Source: Candidatus Micrarchaeota archaeon (GTDB taxonomy: Archaea > Micrarchaeota > Micrarchaeia > Micrarchaeales > Micrarchaeaceae). Taken from it: a stretch of 64,000 nt of DNA. Numbering within the stretch: position 1 is the stretch's first letter; every line of letters begins with the position of its first letter. Both the position numbers and the translations under genes were made by a program. The DNA is taken from positions 2,005-66,004 of the forward strand of contig JAGWHO010000006.1 in NCBI GenBank assembly GCA_028866715.1. The letters run 5' to 3'. Shown in pieces: positions 34,796 through 45,791 of the stretch. The notes under the pieces were generated by a model, which did no database searches, was not told the origin of the DNA, and saw nothing but the letters and a program-made list of their open reading frames with translations.

Positions 34796-35470
34796 ATGGG
34801 CGTTAACCTGATTGTGGTGCTCGGAAAGGTCATACTGCCAGACGGCACGCTAAGCGAGGAGTCGAAAAGGAACGTCGAGAAGGCGGCCGAATTATTCAAG
34901 GCAGGAGCAGCAGACAGGATTGCGATGTCTGGGAGATGGCCCTTTTCAGTAAAGGCCGAGCCGCCAAGGACCGAGGCCGAGGCGATGAAGGAATATGCTA
35001 TCTCGCTCGGCGTACCCAAGGGCGCTATCCTCGTGGAAGACAGATCGCTGGACACGACAGGCAATGCGTACTACCTCGGCAAGATGATTGTCGATGACAC
35101 ATCGATAAAGAAGCTGATAGTTGTTACCGTAGATTACCACATGCCGAGGGCAGAATATATTTTCAAGGCAGCGTTCAGCGAGAGGTTCAAGCTTAAGTTC
35201 GCCAAGTCTGACTCTGGCATAACCGGAGAGTTGCTAAAACAAAAACAGAAGAGCGAGGCGAAGACTACGGACCTGATGCGCAAGCTTTACACCAAAGCAG
35301 ACTGCAATGGTTTCGAAGGATTTTGCAGGACAGTTGAGCGGACGCATCCATTGTATGCGACAGATTACAGCACCGTCCCGCAGATCGTCTGGGACGCTTT
35401 CAGCTCTGCCGGGTTCTCAAAAGAGTACTTGATCGGGAAATACGGCAAAGGCAGGTCCAAAGTGTTCTAG
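34796..35470 (+). CDS. DUF218 (YdcF/ElyC-like) domain protein
   Basis: GKVILPDG..., IAMSGRWP, EAEAMKEYAISLGVPKGAILVEDRSLDTTGNAYY and VVTVDYHMPRA. Confidence 0.78.
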   Translation: MGVNLIVVLGKVILPDGTLSEESKRNVEKAAELFKAGAADRIAMSGRWPFSVKAEPPRTEAEAMKEYAISLGVPKGAILVEDRSLDTTGNAYYLGKMIVDDTSIKKLIVVTVDYHMPRAEYIFKAAFSERFKLKFAKSDSGITGELLKQKQKSEAKTTDLMRKLYTKADCNGFEGFCRTVERTHPLYATDYSTVPQIVWDAFSSAGFSKEYLIGKYGKGRSKVF

Positions 35471-36405
35471 CAAATTGCAGCTCTTGCCAACTGAGGCGCA
35501 TCTGCAATGAACCTTGGGAATTCAGGCCAGCTCTTGTTGACCGCTTCCGGATGCACGACCTCTATCGGTTTGCCCATGAACCTGTACAGCATCACAACCG
35601 CCTGCACAACCCTATGGTCTAACGAATCTACTACACCTATTCTGCTCGCAGTCTCCAGCGCCCTTTCCATCTCCTCAATCCTGTTCGTCTCATGACCAGT
35701 CAGACTCTTGTATAAGAGCAGACCCTCTTCCTTCGTGATGAGCCCGAATGCCCTTGCGAAGCAGTAATCCTCAGCCTGCCCAATCTTAAACTCCATCACG
35801 CCTGTCTTTAATGCCTTAAGGAACGCGACAGCCTGCTTGAGCAGCGTTTCGTCGTACCTTATCCCCCAGCCAGTTTCGGATGTCTTGCGCTCCTCATAAT
35901 GGCCTATTGCATCATAGGTTACCTTTAGCTTGAACGGAGGATTTTCAATCCTCTTCTTGTCGCCCATGAGCGCCGCGGCGCTCGCATACTGCGATGTATT
36001 AAGCTCAAGCAGCTTTTCTTGAGACCAGTGCACTATGCCTTTATCTTTTGCCATAGGCCTGTCCTTGAGCGTCCCATCCAATATGAAGTTCTTCTCAATC
36101 TCGAGCTTCCAGGCAGCAAATTGCAGAAACCTGTAAAGCGTCGCGGATTCTCCAACATATATGTCAGGCGAGCCTGCGAGCCAGCACACAGAAGCCTCGT
36201 AAAGCGCCATCAGGTCATCGCCAAGCAGTTTCTTCTGTGCAAGTGGCGCCAACAGCTCTACAGTGCGGGTGCTGCCTTGCATCAGGTCCATGAACCCCAT
36301 CCTCATCATCCAGGACTTGTCAAGGCTGATATGCCCTTCGTGCACCAGCCTGTGCTCGAGCCTGTCCTGCTCATGCTGCCTATCCCCATTCAGCGCAGTT
36401 TCCAT
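35467..36405 (-). CDS. shortened EPSP-synthase-fold (enolpyruvyl-transferase family) protein
   Basis: The order of AroA signature blocks is preserved: LDKSWMMR (cf. GSKSxSNR), VGESATLYRFL (cf. GNAGTAMRPL), LKDRPM (cf. MKERPI), NTSQYASA (cf. SSQFLTA), AEDYCFA (cf. PDAAMT), HETNR (cf. KETDR), DHRVVQAV (cf. DHRMAM) and NKSWPEF (cf. AKTFPDY). It is only 312 aa, against about 430 for AroA. Confidence 0.6.
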   Translation of the reverse strand: METALNGDRQHEQDRLEHRLVHEGHISLDKSWMMRMGFMDLMQGSTRTVELLAPLAQKKLLGDDLMALYEASVCWLAGSPDIYVGESATLYRFLQFAAWKLEIEKNFILDGTLKDRPMAKDKGIVHWSQEKLLELNTSQYASAAALMGDKKRIENPPFKLKVTYDAIGHYEERKTSETGWGIRYDETLLKQAVAFLKALKTGVMEFKIGQAEDYCFARAFGLITKEEGLLLYKSLTGHETNRIEEMERALETASRIGVVDSLDHRVVQAVVMLYRFMGKPIEVVHPEAVNKSWPEFPRFIADAPQLARAAIC

Positions 36406-38877: not shown

Positions 38878-39333
38878 CTATCTACCGAGAAACAGGTCTG
38901 CGCATCCGGATCTAAGGACGCCGCCAACCCTCTCAATGCCTTCCTTCTTATTGGAGGCTCTCTTCCTGCCGCTTATCTCTCTTCCAGCCTCAATGTCTAG
39001 GAGGTCCTTCAAGCTTATCCCGTAAACAATTCTTTTTATCCCTGCCCATCTACAGGCTCCAAGGCACATATCACACGGCTCGCATGTAGTGTACATAGTG
39101 CCGCCTTCGAAAGCATTGTGAAGCCTGAGCGTCTTTGTCTTCTTACATGCTATCCTTAGCGTGTTGATCTCGCCATGCGCAGCAATGTCCTTTTCCAAAT
39201 AGACTGTATTATGGCCAAGTGCGATAATCTTGTTGTGCATGACGAGACATCCAGCAAACGGCTTCTGGCCCTCCCGCATTCCCTTCCTTGCTTCGGCCAG
39301 TGCCGCTTTCATGAAGCTCTCGTGCCCAACCAT
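38878..39333 (-). CDS. CMP/dCMP-type zinc deaminase (TadA/guanine-deaminase-like)
   Basis: HGEINTL (H-x-E) and TCEPCDMCLGA (PCxxC). I trimmed the track ORF (to 39369) to ATG 39333 because the extension overlaps tRNA-Tyr. Confidence 0.83.
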   Translation of the reverse strand: MVGHESFMKAALAEARKGMREGQKPFAGCLVMHNKIIALGHNTVYLEKDIAAHGEINTLRIACKKTKTLRLHNAFEGGTMYTTCEPCDMCLGACRWAGIKRIVYGISLKDLLDIEAGREISGRKRASNKKEGIERVGGVLRSGCADLFLGR

Positions 39334-39344
39334 CAAATCACGAA

Positions 39345-39445
39345 TCCCGCTGGTGTGAGTCGAACACACAACCTATCGGTTTCTAACTTATTGCAGTTAG
39401 CAATCCAGACTACAGCCGATCGCTCTGCCATTGAGCTACAGCGGG
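39345..39445 (-). tRNA. tRNA-Tyr (GTA) with 29-nt intron at 37/38
   Basis: Acceptor CCCGCTG/CAGCGGG (C1-G72, discriminator A, as in archaeal tRNA-Tyr). Anticodon stem ATCGG/CCGAT and mature loop CTGTAGA. The intron is at 39381-39409. T arm GTGTG-TTCGACT-CACAC. The BHB is relaxed, with one T-T mismatch next to a bulge. Confidence 0.8.
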
Positions 39446-39550
39446 ATACTGACTATTATAAGCGTTAAGATTAATAACTCTATCAGAGAGTAGAAGTGAC
39501 GCCTGGATTTGCGGAGGCGTTGCTAGTATAAATACTCGACCAATGATTGG

Positions 39551-42310
39551 ATGGCGCCCCCACTCAGATCTGCAGGACCGGAGAAGAGCGAGCTAGTCCA
39601 GGAGATAATAAGGAAGCACCACAAGACCCCCATCGCTGTCTATAAGATCAAGGACATGATAATGGAGCTGTCGGGCAATCCGCACTTCATGGACATGATC
39701 CTGTTGCTCCTTGCTTTTATAGCGTTCGTCTCCGCGTTCCCGTTTTATCCGATTGAGCTGCTGATAATATTCGGCATAGTGCTGATTGTCGCGTCGCTCA
39801 AGCACCCGTTCCTGGGCCTCTGCCTGCTCATGGCGCTGATGTTCCCTATAATAATGTACCAAACCCCGCCGCTGGCGTGGGTGTTCATGCTCCTTGTCAG
39901 CGCGTCCCTCATATTCGGGTACAAGTACTACAGGACCATAGCATTTGCCTACGTGCTTGTGGGCCTCGGATTCTCGCCTTTAGGCAGCATCCTTGAGATA
40001 CCCGTCTTCGTGATTGCGCCTCTGATAATAGGATATAAACGCGGACTAGTGCTTACTGCGCTCATGGTCGCAGGCATAGTCATGTTCAGCGGTGTCACAG
40101 GCGTACAGAACAGCGGGTACATACTTTACAATGCCGCTACCGCTCATGCGATACTTAGCACAAGCCCGATATCCCCGCTTCTCACGCCCCACAATCCTGT
40201 GGTGCCTGCATCTATGCTCGGTTCTGCGATATCCCAGTCGTATGCAATTTTCGCCAGCGGCTCTGTGCTTGGAGACATAACCTACGAGTTCAACACCCTT
40301 ATCAGCGCACTGTTCATAAATCCGGGCGCATACGTTGCCGAGTTTCTAGGCATGCTCGCGATAGTCGTAGCTATAGACTTCTACGCCGTGACCAAGAGGT
40401 CGAAGTTCAAGGGCACAATAGCGTCGCTCATAGGCGCGGCCTTCCCGCTCCTGTATCTCGGTCTCGCCACTGTGTCGAAGGCACCATATGTCACGTCATT
40501 CCTGCCGTTGCTCAGCTTCGCCATAGCGCCTGCGCTTATGTACCTGCTTGAGCTGTACGGCATCAACATCGTCAAGGCTCTCGAGGTGAGGAAACAGGAC
40601 GTCAGATTGAAGTTCGGGGAGGCGTTCGAGGATCTCGAGGCCGGCAACGCAACGCAGACATTCGATGACATAGGCAACTACGAAGCAACAAAGAGGGAGC
40701 TGAAAGAGGCTGTGATTGCGCCCATAGAGGAGAAGGGCGTTGCACGCGCATACAACATAAAACCAGCAAAGGGCATACTGTTCTTCGGCCCCCCGGGTAC
40801 CGGTAAAACCATGATGATGAGGGCGCTCGCGAACGAGATAAGGGCAAGCTTCTACCTTGTCAAGGCGCCCAACCTGATATCAGCGTTTCCAGGAGAGACC
40901 GAGCGCATGATATCTAACATATTTGCTGTTGCGAAGAAAAATTCGCCGTGCGTGCTATTCATCGACGAGATAGACTCTGTCGCGAGGAACAGGGAGAGCG
41001 CAGACGTAGACGAGGCGCACAGGCACGCGCTTTCCCAGCTCCTGCAGGAGATCGACGGATTCCAGAAGATAAACAAGGTCATAATAGTCGGGGCCACAAA
41101 CGTGCCGCAGCTGATAGACCCGGCAATGATGAGGCCCGGAAGATTCGACAAGATAATCTACATGCCGCTTCCTGACCTTAATGGCAGGAAGAAGATATTC
41201 AAGATATACCTGAACAAACTGCCGGCCTCGAAGGACATAGATCTTGACAAGATCGCTGAAGAGACGGAGAGGTACTCTGGCGCAGACATCAAGGTCGTGT
41301 GCGACAACGTAGCCCAGATGGTCTCGCAGGAGGCCACATCGCAGAACAGGGTGCTTGAGATAACGCAGGAAGACATACTCGACATCATAAAGTCGACTAA
41401 GCCGTCAACAAGCTTCTCGCAGCTAGAGGATTACAACAAGTTCAGGATTGATTATGAGAGAAGAAGCTTCGAGGAGGGGAAAGTAGAGAAGGCGCCGCAG
41501 ATAAGCATGGACGACGTCGTAGGACTCGAAGAGGCCAAGAAGGCGATAGTCGAAGCGATACAGATACCGTTGATGCATCCGGAGCTGCTCAAGAAATACG
41601 ATATCAAGCCGATCAACGGGCTTTTGTTGTTCGGGCCTCCAGGAAACGGAAAGTCCATGCTCATGCGCGCCGTAAGCAACGAGATGAAGGGCATAACCAT
41701 ACTTGAACTGCGCGGCTCGGAGTTCGCGGGCAGGGACAAGGAGAGCGCATCAGAAACTATAAAAGAGGTGTTCAACAGGGCGCGCGAGAACATCCCATCG
41801 ATAATCTTCATCGACGAGATAGATAGCATCGTGCCTAAAAGGGAGAACGCCACCCAGTCGACCCTCCAGATGACCGGTGAACTGCTGCAAGAGATAGACG
41901 GGGTCAAGCAGCAGTCCGGGATAGTGGTGATAGCAGCAACGAACAGGCCCGACTCGCTGGACACTGCAATACTCAGGCCAGGCCGATTCGACAAGCTCAT
42001 CTTCGTGAAGCCGCCTGCGCCCGAAGATCGTGCAAAGCTGTTCAAGATATATTTGCAGCAGGTGCCTGTCAGCAAGGACATGGACTACGCAAAGCTCGGC
42101 ACCCAGGCGAAGGGCTTCACCGGCGCAGACATAGCCAACATGTGCAGGGAGGCAAAGACCAAGGCATTGGAGGAGAACATCAAGACAGGAAAGGATGTCG
42201 AGATAACCATGGCGAGCATGCTCGCGATAATAAACGAGACAAAGCCGTCCGCGCCGGACACCGTGATAAGCATATATCTGTCATTCTTGGCAAGGTACGG
42301 CCAGAGATAA
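39551..42310 (+). CDS. polytopic membrane domain fused to Cdc48/VCP-like tandem AAA+ ATPase
   Basis: Residues ~40-345 form about 8 hydrophobic helices. D1 follows (GPPGTGKT, LFIDEIDS, RPGRFD, pore-loop-like AFPGE). D2 follows that (GPPGNGKS, IFIDEIDS, RPGRFD, pore-loop-like EFAGR). No Cdc48 N-domain and no protease domain are present. Confidence 0.85.
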   Translation: MAPPLRSAGPEKSELVQEIIRKHHKTPIAVYKIKDMIMELSGNPHFMDMILLLLAFIAFVSAFPFYPIELLIIFGIVLIVASLKHPFLGLCLLMALMFPIIMYQTPPLAWVFMLLVSASLIFGYKYYRTIAFAYVLVGLGFSPLGSILEIPVFVIAPLIIGYKRGLVLTALMVAGIVMFSGVTGVQNSGYILYNAATAHAILSTSPISPLLTPHNPVVPASMLGSAISQSYAIFASGSVLGDITYEFNTLISALFINPGAYVAEFLGMLAIVVAIDFYAVTKRSKFKGTIASLIGAAFPLLYLGLATVSKAPYVTSFLPLLSFAIAPALMYLLELYGINIVKALEVRKQDVRLKFGEAFEDLEAGNATQTFDDIGNYEATKRELKEAVIAPIEEKGVARAYNIKPAKGILFFGPPGTGKTMMMRALANEIRASFYLVKAPNLISAFPGETERMISNIFAVAKKNSPCVLFIDEIDSVARNRESADVDEAHRHALSQLLQEIDGFQKINKVIIVGATNVPQLIDPAMMRPGRFDKIIYMPLPDLNGRKKIFKIYLNKLPASKDIDLDKIAEETERYSGADIKVVCDNVAQMVSQEATSQNRVLEITQEDILDIIKSTKPSTSFSQLEDYNKFRIDYERRSFEEGKVEKAPQISMDDVVGLEEAKKAIVEAIQIPLMHPELLKKYDIKPINGLLLFGPPGNGKSMLMRAVSNEMKGITILELRGSEFAGRDKESASETIKEVFNRARENIPSIIFIDEIDSIVPKRENATQSTLQMTGELLQEIDGVKQQSGIVVIAATNRPDSLDTAILRPGRFDKLIFVKPPAPEDRAKLFKIYLQQVPVSKDMDYAKLGTQAKGFTGADIANMCREAKTKALEENIKTGKDVEITMASMLAIINETKPSAPDTVISIYLSFLARYGQR

Positions 42311-43090
42311 TCAGATCTTTTTCCTGGATAGCCTCTCGCCTATCTCTTTGTTCGCGAATACGCGCGATAGCGAATTGGCGTAAATGTCTATCCTATTTTC
42401 GTTTACCCTTGCTCTGCAGAACTCTATCTTCACGAAATCGTCTGGCTTGAGCATGGAAGCCGCGTGCGCGGACGATTCCAACAAAGACAAGTGTGCGGTA
42501 TTGACAGAATCGGTGACTGTGCACTCCATGATTGGGACCTGATTCTCGGACCCGATGCGGCCCACGTTTTTCACCTGCCCTATTTCGAGTATTCTTCCTG
42601 AGATGTCGATGTTCTTCATCCCGTCCTTGATGCAGGAGTAGTCTGACACGCAGTTCACCCATGCGCCAGAAGCAACCTTGCTTATGGCAGTGTCCTTGTC
42701 TGCCCTGAGCTCCTCCAATGCCATGTCGAGGAGCGCGTCCTTCAAAAGTATAGTGTCTCCTCGCTCTATGCATATGTCGTCGATCAGCTCGGAAAGCTTT
42801 CCTGAAAGATTGAGCTTAGCGGTTGAGCCCTCCCCCCCAAGCACGACAATCCTTCTCTTGCCAGCTGACGGGTTGAATACCCTATAGACAAGGTCCTGTA
42901 TGCTGAGGGTGTAGAGGCCAGGCGCCTGCCTGACTCTGCTCATGGATGTGAACCCCAGAAGGGCCTGCACGTTGGTCACGCCCCCGTTCTGCGGGTATTT
43001 CGAGAAGTTGCCGGAATCTATCAGCGCCTTGGCTTGGCCAGGCGTTATCATCCCTGAGAACCTGTCCACCACCTCTTCGACAGTAGCCAT
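42311..43090 (-). CDS. putative OB-fold ssDNA-binding (RPA-like) protein
   Basis: Trimmed to ATG 43090 (MATVEEVV...). There are two segments with an RPA-type OB pattern, for example ISGRILEIGQVKNVGRIGSENQVPIMECTVTDSVNTAHLSLLE...DDFVKIEFCRARVNENRIDIY. The call rests on pattern only. Confidence 0.45.
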   Translation of the reverse strand: MATVEEVVDRFSGMITPGQAKALIDSGNFSKYPQNGGVTNVQALLGFTSMSRVRQAPGLYTLSIQDLVYRVFNPSAGKRRIVVLGGEGSTAKLNLSGKLSELIDDICIERGDTILLKDALLDMALEELRADKDTAISKVASGAWVNCVSDYSCIKDGMKNIDISGRILEIGQVKNVGRIGSENQVPIMECTVTDSVNTAHLSLLESSAHAASMLKPDDFVKIEFCRARVNENRIDIYANSLSRVFANKEIGERLSRKKI

Positions 43091-44645: not shown

Positions 44646-45791
44646 ATGAAAATATCAAAGGAGAGGTTTTTCGCGCCAATAGTAATAGCATTGGTGCTTC
44701 TAGGTGGTGTATCAGGGTATGCGATAGCTTCGAATTATAACAGTATCTCTTCATATAAGGTGCCAGTGGGGTTCCCTGGGGTTTCAAATATTATCTCATT
44801 TGGGAATGCAGTAGCTCCGGTTGTGATGGAGTCTCAACAATTCCAAAAAGTGGCAAATGGTGTCGTATATCATACAGATCAATATTCAAGTTTTGGATAT
44901 ACATGGGGGCCTGGAATAAACTCTACTGAACGAATAATCTTCTTCTCGCCGGATAATTCTTCTTATATTGTGTCTGATATCTACGTTTCCAACAAAACAA
45001 TACAAGATATCTACTTCATAAACAGAACAAAAGTTCATGTAAGTTTTCCAGGCGCCTCAAGCAATTACGGGGGCTATTACTCTGAATATTGTAGCGGCAC
45101 ATTTTTTGGAACATGTACAGGCGAATCTACACTGTCCGAAGTGTATGGAAAGATTCAAATTCCTGGCACTATAAGTAAACCAAGTACTGGTTGCAGTACT
45201 TCGGCGTGTGCGGTTTTTGGCTCTTGGACTGGCGTCTCAGTAGACGGTTCTGGCGCCAACTTAACACAAGGTGGAATATCGTGGTTTGGGTTCAACGTAA
45301 CTCCACCAAGCAACAATAGAAACGGGTTCTCTTTGTTTGTGCAGCGCTTGCCTAATAGCCCAACATTTATAACGCCTCCTTCGGGGTGGATATTAAGTGG
45401 TAACACCGTCAATATGACTACCGAACCAATGGCAAATTGTGCCAACACCGGAGATGATTGGTATCAGTTCTGGAAGCTTGGGGGGTCATCTACGAGCCAG
45501 GCTATAGGTTGTGATAGTCCAACAAATATCTACTATGGTTGGTATATCTTTGAATCCCCTGCAGGATGCAGTGGCTCAGGATGCTACAGCGGTCTCTACC
45601 AAATCCCCGAAGTCTCAAGCATGAGCTTTACTGGAAACATCTGCAACAATGTCGGGACATGCAGAAACATAAATAGCAACAGCGATCCAATCCAAGGCTA
45701 TTATATACAGCACAATAGTCAGGATACATCAACTGGCACTATCTCAAGTGGCGGAAACTCATGGACCGAAAGCTGGCTTAGTAGTAGCTAG
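44646..45791 (+). CDS. secreted protein, probable glutamic peptidase (G1/eqolisin, 'peptidase A4') homologue
   Basis: N-terminal signal/anchor (FFAPIVIALVLLGGVSGYAIA). Motif order matches scytalidoglutamic peptidase as I recall it: SSNYGGYY (cf. SNWGGAI), IQIPG, FGSWTGVSVDG...LTQGG (cf. AWVGIDGD...LQTG, with catalytic Gln) and GWYIFES (cf. AEFIIED, with catalytic Glu). Confidence 0.5.
   Translation: MKISKERFFAPIVIALVLLGGVSGYAIASNYNSISSYKVPVGFPGVSNIISFGNAVAPVVMESQQFQKVANGVVYHTDQYSSFGYTWGPGINSTERIIFFSPDNSSYIVSDIYVSNKTIQDIYFINRTKVHVSFPGASSNYGGYYSEYCSGTFFGTCTGESTLSEVYGKIQIPGTISKPSTGCSTSACAVFGSWTGVSVDGSGANLTQGGISWFGFNVTPPSNNRNGFSLFVQRLPNSPTFITPPSGWILSGNTVNMTTEPMANCANTGDDWYQFWKLGGSSTSQAIGCDSPTNIYYGWYIFESPAGCSGSGCYSGLYQIPEVSSMSFTGNICNNVGTCRNINSNSDPIQGYYIQHNSQDTSTGTISSGGNSWTESWLSSS

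Follow-up and report, generated by a model that had tools for sequence, protein, structure and literature searches.

In a 64,000-nucleotide stretch of Candidatus Micrarchaeota archaeon DNA (assembly GCA_028866715.1, contig JAGWHO010000006.1; hereafter the window), the gene at 39551..42310 on the + strand specifies a classical AAA+ ATPase of type II (two rings) that is integral to the membrane and typical of Micrarchaeota. The 919-residue product runs from a basic cytosolic tail through a polytopic helical membrane domain (residues 46-338) and a conserved juxtamembrane linker into two AAA modules, D1 and D2. The family to which it belongs is widespread in Micrarchaeota yet uncharacterised. The first-pass annotation of this DNA had allowed that the architecture might already have been described; members of the family were found under the labels 'AAA family ATPase' and 'hypothetical protein', and a literature search found no paper describing this protein. 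With moderate confidence, we propose that the protein works as a hexameric membrane-protein dislocase with its D1 pore facing the membrane. The gene and its domains, with residue numbers in parentheses, are as follows.

39551..42310, + strand: complete coding sequence of the membrane-embedded tandem-AAA ATPase; ATG start, 919 residues plus stop, ending in ...ARYGQR.
39551..39685, + strand: basic cytosolic N-tail (1-45); two short helices and the conserved motif IIRKxHxxPIxxYxxKD.
39686..40564, + strand: polytopic alpha-helical membrane domain (46-338), placed by hydropathy, AlphaFold2 and the charge rule.
40100..40321, + strand: predicted extracytoplasmic loop (184-257), placed by the K/R alternation; contains short helices.
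40565..40657, + strand: juxtamembrane linker (339-369); a helix at 343-358 with VKALDVRKQD..KFGEAFEDL, then a flexible stretch at 361-365 into D1.
40658..41470, + strand: AAA module D1, large subdomain and lid (370-640); PF00004, AAA_lid_3 and p97 phmmer matches.
41492..42307, + strand: AAA module D2, large subdomain and lid (648-919); PF00004, AAA_lid_3 and a best Protein Data Bank (PDB) match to VAT D2.

The open reading frame (ORF) at 39551..42310 is uninterrupted over its whole length, and its start and end are shared by a 100% identical database entry (P0001) and by a full-length relative of 82% identity (P0002). Among 5.8 billion proteins searched, at least 120 full-length relatives were found; they have 904-983 residues (all but one below 950) and are 50-82% identical at ~97-100% query coverage. 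These are mostly unnamed or labelled 'AAA family ATPase' and come from Candidatus Micrarchaeota or Micrarchaeia. Conservation was counted over a full-length set of 133 proteins, made up of 119 close and 14 distant members. The N-terminal region is 36-50% identical among more than 130 full-length homologues, and some of its residues are invariant. Distant subfamily members, with only ~20-35% N-domain similarity, retain the membrane-AAA fusion. The named ones among them are Micrarchaeota as well and belong to Anstonellales (class Micrarchaeia, phylum Microcaldota in the NCBI taxonomy) and to the cultured strain ARM-1, whose family member, ARM1_0067, is annotated as a 'hypothetical protein'.

Next, genomes from GTDB, one per species, were scanned for the same fusion with a single junction peptide taken from the N-domain alignment. 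The fusion was found at 51 loci, which is a lower bound because only one junction motif served as the query. Nearly all the loci lie in Micrarchaeota metagenome-assembled genomes (MAGs), and they include one 1.2-Mb chromosome and one Mancarchaeum bin. A few sit in bins labelled Marsarchaeota, Acidiferrales or Methanothrix, which we suspect of being mis-binned.

The earlier annotation had also raised the concern that a sequencing or assembly frameshift near 40560-40620 had joined a membrane-protein gene to a separate Cdc48-like gene. The fused frame runs unbroken in over 130 independent homologues, obtained in many studies and with many assemblers, and at 50 of the 51 loci. Further, the stretch VKALDVRKQD..KFGEAFEDL at the junction of the membrane domain and D1 is the most conserved part of the protein outside the AAA modules. 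Across the full-length set F355 is 100% conserved, G356, F359, E360 and L362 are 92-98% conserved, and K348 and D350 exceed 93%. What speaks for an artefact is one locus in a long-read assembly, L013, where the gene is split into membrane and AAA parts, and a few short membrane-only database entries, mostly contig-end fragments. Since more than 130 relatives, down to the distant members, share the layout and its strongly conserved junction, the artefact reading is effectively refuted. At L013:8001-10773, on a 1.05-Mb long-read Micrarchaeota contig, a membrane-domain ORF and an AAA ORF overlap by ~100 nucleotides, and this split is a probable frameshift, arising either in a pseudogene or from sequencing error.

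The membrane domain alone was then used as a query. A word-index search was swamped by hydrophobic words, gave one match and missed known relatives, and so 1.84 billion representative proteins were instead searched exhaustively in HMMER with a profile built from 29 diverse N-domains. Only 73 proteins matched. The complete long matches all consist of the membrane domain followed by two AAA modules, are ~890-930 residues long and end in ...[YF]-G-[EQ]-R. The exceptions are fragments, a protein with a single AAA module (P0128), intein-bearing forms and two outliers, P0184 and P0192. In complete proteins the membrane domain always lies N-terminal to the AAA modules, and the shorter matches are mostly contig-end fragments. 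Three matches of 332-365 residues (P0139, P0149 and P0165) lack an AAA module and may be truncated. The short form P0128 (645 residues), in which the membrane domain is followed by a single AAA module and the family motif ...SRYGKR at the end, is apparently genuine.

Inteins were observed inside D1, shortly past the Walker A region, in P0142 (1912 residues), P0161 (1080 residues) and P0181 (1403 residues). All three have Intein_splicing matches, and LAGLIDADG endonuclease domains were found in P0142 and P0181. P0142 has two separate Intein_splicing plus LAGLIDADG matches and may hold two inteins. Inteins favour conserved sites in important proteins; therefore, their presence in D1 of some members suggests that the protein is functionally important.

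The N-terminal region had been read in the first-pass annotation as about eight hydrophobic helices. Its membrane-embedded character, as opposed to a soluble one, was upheld by hydropathy, by the AlphaFold2 helices and by the K/R pattern. Kyte-Doolittle segments above 1.6 cover residues 42-186 and 254-341, and the family-averaged hydropathy shows the same blocks. The AlphaFold2 model of the N-domain, computed from the alignment of 29 diverse N-domains, is all-helical, with a predicted local distance difference test (pLDDT) score of 87 and a predicted TM-score (pTM) of 0.84, and the full-length model repeats this fold. Nine long helices are seen, an odd count because transmembrane (TM) helices 4 and 5 are drawn as one 35-residue helix (106-140). 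Across the family alignment the loop charge alternates perfectly between segments rich in K/R (the N-tail, 84-86, 121-130, 160-165, 280-288 and 335-352) and loops free of them (63-67, 103-107, 140-146 and 308-318). By this positive-inside pattern and by hydropathy, the N-tail is placed on the same side of the membrane as the AAA modules, in the cytoplasm. The earlier count of eight helices did not hold up as well: the charge rule favours about 10 predicted crossings, with both the N-terminal and C-terminal ends inside and a ~75-residue outside loop at 184-257. There may instead be nine crossings, or eight plus a re-entrant hairpin.

Several parts of this region are strongly conserved. The N-tail, which carries on family average 8.8 K+R against 4.8 D+E, has its modelled helices at residues 14-23 and 28-41, and its Y31 is invariant in the family. 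The outside loop opens with the conserved motif G-x-Q-N-x-x-Y-I-x-Y-N, in which conservation reaches at least 90% at N187 and Y193. Conserved residues gather at both membrane interfaces: Y66-P67, Y103-Q104 and N187...Y193 on the outside, and R128, K163-R164 and R283 on the inside.

Pfam, even at E = 1, assigned no family to any of the 29 N-domain members, and NCBIfam assigned none to residues 1-350. The membrane-domain profile had no match among PDB sequences, and the N-domain model gave nothing significant in Foldseek against the PDB (best E = 0.2, TM-score ~0.22) or against the viral library BFVD. An internal or inverted repeat was sought in the membrane domain and none was found. The positions of this domain that are at least 85% conserved include no His and no Cys. 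An intramembrane protease of the rhomboid, S2P, presenilin/SPP or Rce1 type was considered and rejected; the motifs GxSG...H, HExxH...LDG, YD...GxGD and EExxxR...H are absent among the conserved positions, and there is no family or fold match. Judging from these searches and the model, the membrane domain is of no known fold or family and is not represented in the PDB.

The two AAA modules were recognised by Pfam as PF00004 AAA twice (259.8 bits, in two stretches) and AAA_lid_3 twice. Their functional motifs are listed below.

40787..40810, + strand: D1 Walker A GPPGTGKT (413-420); 93-100% conserved, with G, K and the final T at 100%.
40883..40903, + strand: D1 pore loop 1, A-F-P-G-E-T-E (445-451); F446 pairs with p97 W551 in the alignment.
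40952..40975, + strand: D1 Walker B VLFIDEID (468-475); D472 and E473, with D and E 100% conserved.
41129..41149, + strand: D1 second region of homology MRPGRFD (527-533); both arginine fingers, with sensor-1 N517 upstream.
41633..41656, + strand: D2 Walker A GPPGNGKS (695-702); G, P and K at 100%, and the last residue is T in ~93% of relatives.
41711..41746, + strand: D2 counterpart of pore loop 1, RGSEFAGRDKES (721-732); degenerate in a comparison across 130+ members.
41801..41824, + strand: D2 Walker B IIFIDEID (751-758); D 99-100% and E 100% conserved.
41972..41992, + strand: D2 second region of homology LRPGRFD (808-814); both arginine fingers, with sensor-1 N798 upstream.
42281..42307, + strand: C-terminus SFLARYGQR; family consensus F-L-x-[KR]-[YF]-G-[QE]-R, at the end of the last lid helix.

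The two complete modules described in the first-pass annotation are thus present with all the Walker A, Walker B and RPGRFD motifs that it had cited (FIDEIDS at residues 470-476 and 753-759; RPGRFD at 528-533 and 809-814). In both D1 and D2 the Walker A motif, the Walker B DE pair, the sensor-1 Asn and both arginine fingers are ~100% conserved over the 133 proteins; R528, R531 and N517 in D1 and R809, R812 and N798 in D2 reach 100%. The combination of PF00004 with the second region of homology clearly assigns the protein to the classical AAA clade. Only one of the two pore-loop candidates proposed earlier stood. FPG in D1 (446-448) belongs to a conserved canonical loop with the family pattern [YFW]-x-G-[ED]-[ST]-E, which reads K-[YW]-[VY]-G-E-S-E in distant members. 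FAG in D2 (726-728) is limited to the 919-residue protein and its nearest relative (FSG in P0002) and is not in register with the canonical pore loop. Raw sequences and column statistics from 130+ members showed no conserved aromatic-x-Gly-Glu-Ser-Glu element in D2.

The description of the protein as Cdc48-like was kept at the level of the clade and not at that of the family. The best solved relatives of each module are p97, Cdc48 and VAT (E ~1e-110 to 1e-117), and each module aligns best to their D2; D1 alone scored 204 bits against p97 D1 and 208 bits against p97 D2 in a phmmer search of the PDB. Against curated models D1 scored 245 bits for PAN, 244 for Cdc48 and 210 for FtsH, and D2 scored 235 for Cdc48, 219 for PAN and 195 for FtsH, all far under the family cutoffs. 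The Cdc48 N-domain is also absent. D1 and D2 are 36% identical to each other. In Foldseek, the full-length model is colinear with p97 D1-D2 over ~570 columns (E ~1e-37, ~32% identity). The pLDDT falls below 50 at residues 361-365 and in the D1-D2 linker (641-647), both of which are predicted to be flexible linkers.

No FtsH-type protease domain had been seen at first, and searches of Pfam and NCBIfam likewise gave no match to Peptidase_M41 or to Lon_C/Lon protease. The reading of the ...ARYGQR terminus as something other than an HbYX motif also proved sound. The HbYX motif at the extreme C-terminus docks PAN, Cdc48 and AMA on the 20S proteasome (PMC3493965). The 919-residue protein has no such docking tail because it stops right after the last lid helix (helix 903-916), with Tyr at position -4 from the C-terminus, as in most relatives. 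Proteasome docking through HbYX was therefore rejected as an explanation for the conserved C-terminal motif, which is the end of a lid helix, is mirrored at the end of D1 (...YNKFRIDYERR) and aligns with p97 ...YEMFAQ.

These features suggest how the protein might work, and from them we infer the hexamer, its orientation, its threading direction and its substrate class. The protein would assemble as a hexamer because arginine fingers act in trans, as in characterised classical AAA proteins in which they are intact. The face of D1 would lie directly under the membrane, since the membrane domain joins it ~30 residues N-terminal to D1, and its entry face would be ringed by up to 60 transmembrane helices. 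D1 would hydrolyse ATP, grip a polypeptide at or in the membrane with its aromatic pore loop and thread it cytoplasm-wards. This direction is expected because substrates would enter at the N-terminal face of D1, as they do at the corresponding face in Cdc48, ClpB-type and FtsH machines. D2, in which the catalytic residues are kept and the pore loop is degenerate, may add power or stabilise the ring. The most likely task would be to extract and unfold membrane or membrane-associated proteins, for quality control or regulated removal, and the product would refold or pass to a separate protease, since none is built in. A role in membrane-protein extraction is a reasonable deduction from this geometry. 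In FtsH and Msp1 the AAA pore entrance faces the membrane and membrane proteins are extracted, while Cdc48 threads from D1 to D2. The nearest relatives of both modules, Cdc48/p97/VAT and PAN, are protein-threading unfoldases. In addition, the short and highly conserved linker between the last transmembrane helix and D1 argues for tight mechanical or functional coupling.

Several observations weigh against a dislocase. For a simple anchor, the membrane domain is far too large and too well conserved, its outside-facing motifs included; its size and conservation hint at a further role besides anchoring, for which the dislocase model offers no explanation. The topology is also split between the nine helices of AlphaFold2 and the even number demanded by the charge rule. 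Finally, no conserved operon partner was found across the related loci.

A less probable explanation, which we still regard as worth weighing, is that the protein is a tethered remodeller. The membrane domain would then be mainly an anchor or regulatory platform, and the double ring would act on membrane-proximal complexes without extracting integral membrane proteins; envelope, pilus, secretion or division assemblies could be disassembled or recycled in the manner of NSF, Vps4 or Pex1/6. Many classical AAA relatives disassemble complexes, both modules are Cdc48/PAN-like, and the protein has neither a protease domain nor a proteasome-docking tail. NSF has a division of labour between its two AAA modules, which the active D1 and degenerate D2 pore loops resemble. 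However, one helix is enough to anchor Msp1, Bcs1 and the Sulfolobus MBA proteins, whereas here conservation extends over ~290 residues in the membrane and includes invariant positions on both faces. This conservation on both faces, together with the short and rigidly conserved linker, suggests that the membrane domain joins in the reaction.

Another idea arose from the restriction of the family to Micrarchaeota and from cryo-electron tomography (cryo-ET) of ARM-1 (PMC11329633), namely that the protein serves as an uptake motor where symbiont and host meet. The hexamer would form or gate a conduit through which D1 pulls inward an unfolded polypeptide or other polymer delivered by the host through nanotubes or cytoplasmic bridges, by analogy with the chloroplast Ycf2-FtsHi import motor. 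The family is essentially confined to Micrarchaeota, which are obligate episymbionts, its conserved motifs face outward, and the predicted threading runs from the membrane to the cytoplasm. ARM-1, which has the gene, is also the strain whose envelope bears a complex where host nanotubes (lumen 4.4 nm) dock, and passage of proteins is discussed by the authors (PMC11329633). The link is circumstantial, however. In cryo-ET the barrel measures 21 nm across and is located in the envelope below the S-layer, not at the cytoplasmic face, and according to the authors it may consist of host proteins (PMC11329633). No genes for surface or contact functions were found alongside it at the loci. We consider an uptake motor improbable.

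It is more doubtful still, to the point of being very improbable, that the membrane domain is a transporter or channel for small molecules or ions that the AAA rings regulate or energise. The domain does bear a likeness to the helix bundles of AmtB, bile-acid transporters and ECF S-components or other vitamin-uptake proteins, but these matches are below threshold and insignificant (E >= 0.2, TM-score <= 0.44) and were rejected. Moreover, the domain has no internal or inverted repeat, and Pfam and NCBIfam gave no transporter family among the 29 members. Where the aromatic pore loop is intact, classical AAA modules act as motors that thread polypeptides, and we know of none that drives solute transport.

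The genomic context includes the following features.

39527..39534, + strand: TATA-like box TATAAATA, 24 nucleotides 5' of the ATG, read off the sequence.
39345-39445, - strand: intron-containing tRNA gene of 101 nucleotides; Rfam RF00005, 58 bits, E = 4e-12; not called by ARAGORN.
42311-43090, - strand: convergent SSB/RPA-like gene of 259 residues, with no Pfam match of its own; the listed ORF extends to 43309.

The TATAAATA box is a candidate archaeal promoter, from which the transcript would be leaderless or nearly so and monocistronic. The AAA gene is most likely monocistronic because an opposite-strand tRNA and a convergent gene lie on its two sides. The other genes nearby in the window have unrelated housekeeping functions (GNAT, alcohol dehydrogenase, NUDIX, deaminase, Na+/H+ exchanger and aminotransferase). 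The upstream genes vary freely across the 51 loci, and one neighbour alone recurs: the convergent gene downstream, which comes within ~20 nucleotides of the AAA stop codon at 27 of 45 loci. The profile of this gene's family matches Sulfolobus SSB (E = 5e-7) and RPA OB domains, and by these matches its product is a DNA-binding, replication housekeeping protein. This is best seen as conserved gene order and not as functional pairing, since the neighbour has a housekeeping role and is encoded on the opposite strand. The listed ORF, which reaches 43309, has its 5' end over-extended into the Na+/H+ exchanger gene. No second AAA paralogue was found in the window or at the 51 loci.

A part in known anti-phage defence was also considered. 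PADLOC matched IetA of IetAS and TRIP13 of CBASS by the AAA modules only, with no match to the membrane domain, and this candidate was rejected. With a tRNA and an SSB-like gene as its neighbours, the gene has no defence-system partner nearby.

Some side observations were made on the surrounding ORFs. The tRNA at 39345-39445 overlaps the 5' extension of the listed deaminase ORF (38878..39369, - strand), and so the deaminase gene probably starts further downstream. A 381-residue ORF at 44646-45791 (+ strand) has an N-terminal hydrophobic helix, a body rich in Ser, Thr, Asn, Gly and Cys and no Pfam match; its product looks like a secreted or surface protein, possibly glycosylated. An ORF of 312 residues at 35467-36405 (- strand) has no Pfam match at E <= 0.001.

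FtsH, Msp1 and Bcs1 are central to membrane-protein quality control. To our knowledge, all the well-studied membrane-anchored AAA unfoldases are anchored by one or two helices and have just one ring. A large, conserved and structurally unprecedented membrane domain joined to a Cdc48-type double ring would be a new mode of coupling an unfoldase to the membrane. As far as we know, archaea in general are without FtsH, and their removal of membrane proteins is poorly understood. The family also seems to mark the Micrarchaeota, a group in which host dependence and traffic at cell contacts are open questions. If the uptake motor were true, it would be a lineage-defining adaptation of Micrarchaeota to episymbiosis. 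The cultivated strain ARM-1, with ARM1_0067, makes the family testable, and pipelines for proteomics and cryo-tomography have been published.

Compared with known systems, the protein is closest to Cdc48, VAT and p97, with which it shares two tandem classical AAA modules, each with AAA_lid_3 (PDB E ~1e-115 per module), and intact Walker A and B motifs, sensor-1 and double arginine fingers in both rings. In contrast to these proteins, it has a polytopic membrane domain in place of the double-psi-barrel/beta-clam N-domain, and it scores 466.6 bits against the Cdc48 model (TIGR01243), for which the cutoff is 802.65. Both of its modules are nearer to Cdc48-D2 and PAN than to a D1 plus D2 pair. The aromatic pore loop is in D1 and D2 is degenerate, while p97 is the reverse, and unlike Cdc48 the protein has no C-terminal tail or HbYX. 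PAN (NF003069/TIGR01242) differs in its coiled-coil and OB N-domain and its single AAA module; the 919-residue protein scored 451.9 bits against a cutoff of 500.

FtsH and the m- and i-AAA proteases resemble the protein in having an N-terminal membrane anchor, a short linker and a classical AAA module with its pore entrance towards the membrane, and extraction of membrane proteins is the presumed job of both. However, FtsH has two transmembrane helices (or one), one AAA module and a C-terminal M41 zinc protease (HEXXH), whereas the protein described here has ~10 predicted transmembrane helices, two AAA modules and no protease, and scored 398.3 bits against a cutoff of 600 (TIGR01241). Archaeal LonB, an AAA+ protein with inserted transmembrane helices and a Lon Ser-Lys protease, gave only a 30-bit partial match, for which the cutoff is 608.

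Msp1/ATAD1 and Bcs1 likewise form AAA rings anchored in a membrane, carry no protease and move proteins out of the membrane or across it, but they have a single transmembrane helix and a single ring (heptameric in Bcs1), and their membrane part is not homologous. The MBA proteins form a separate archaeal AAA cluster (PMC3493965). MBA1 and MBA2 of Sulfolobales share with the present family an archaeal origin, a membrane-bound classical AAA module related to the Cdc48 clade, and the lack of a folded soluble N-domain and of a protease. The Sulfolobales proteins, as Serek-Heuberger et al. are said to have described them in 2009, have one transmembrane helix, within an N-terminal extension of ~50 residues, and one AAA module, and are confined to Sulfolobales. 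The present family, with ~9-10 predicted transmembrane helices, two AAA modules and an occurrence essentially confined to Micrarchaeota, is set apart from them by its architecture.

The two outliers of the profile search, P0192 (from a Thermoplasmatota-labelled MAG; E = 2.4e-4) and P0184 (E = 2.7e-7), are similar in having a polytopic block, with a PFYP(WW) motif region in common with the family, followed by one or two classical AAA modules. They differ in an extra N-terminal signal or anchor helix, a ~330-residue extracellular domain and the C-terminus. The P0192 gene (L053:4583-9888) lies directly 3' of a VWA-domain gene and overlaps its end, which suggests a two-gene system of a VWA protein and a membrane AAA protein. 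The Micrarchaeota family is a polytopic-membrane, protease-less, tandem-ring AAA family and a new variant within the membrane-anchored AAA unfoldases.

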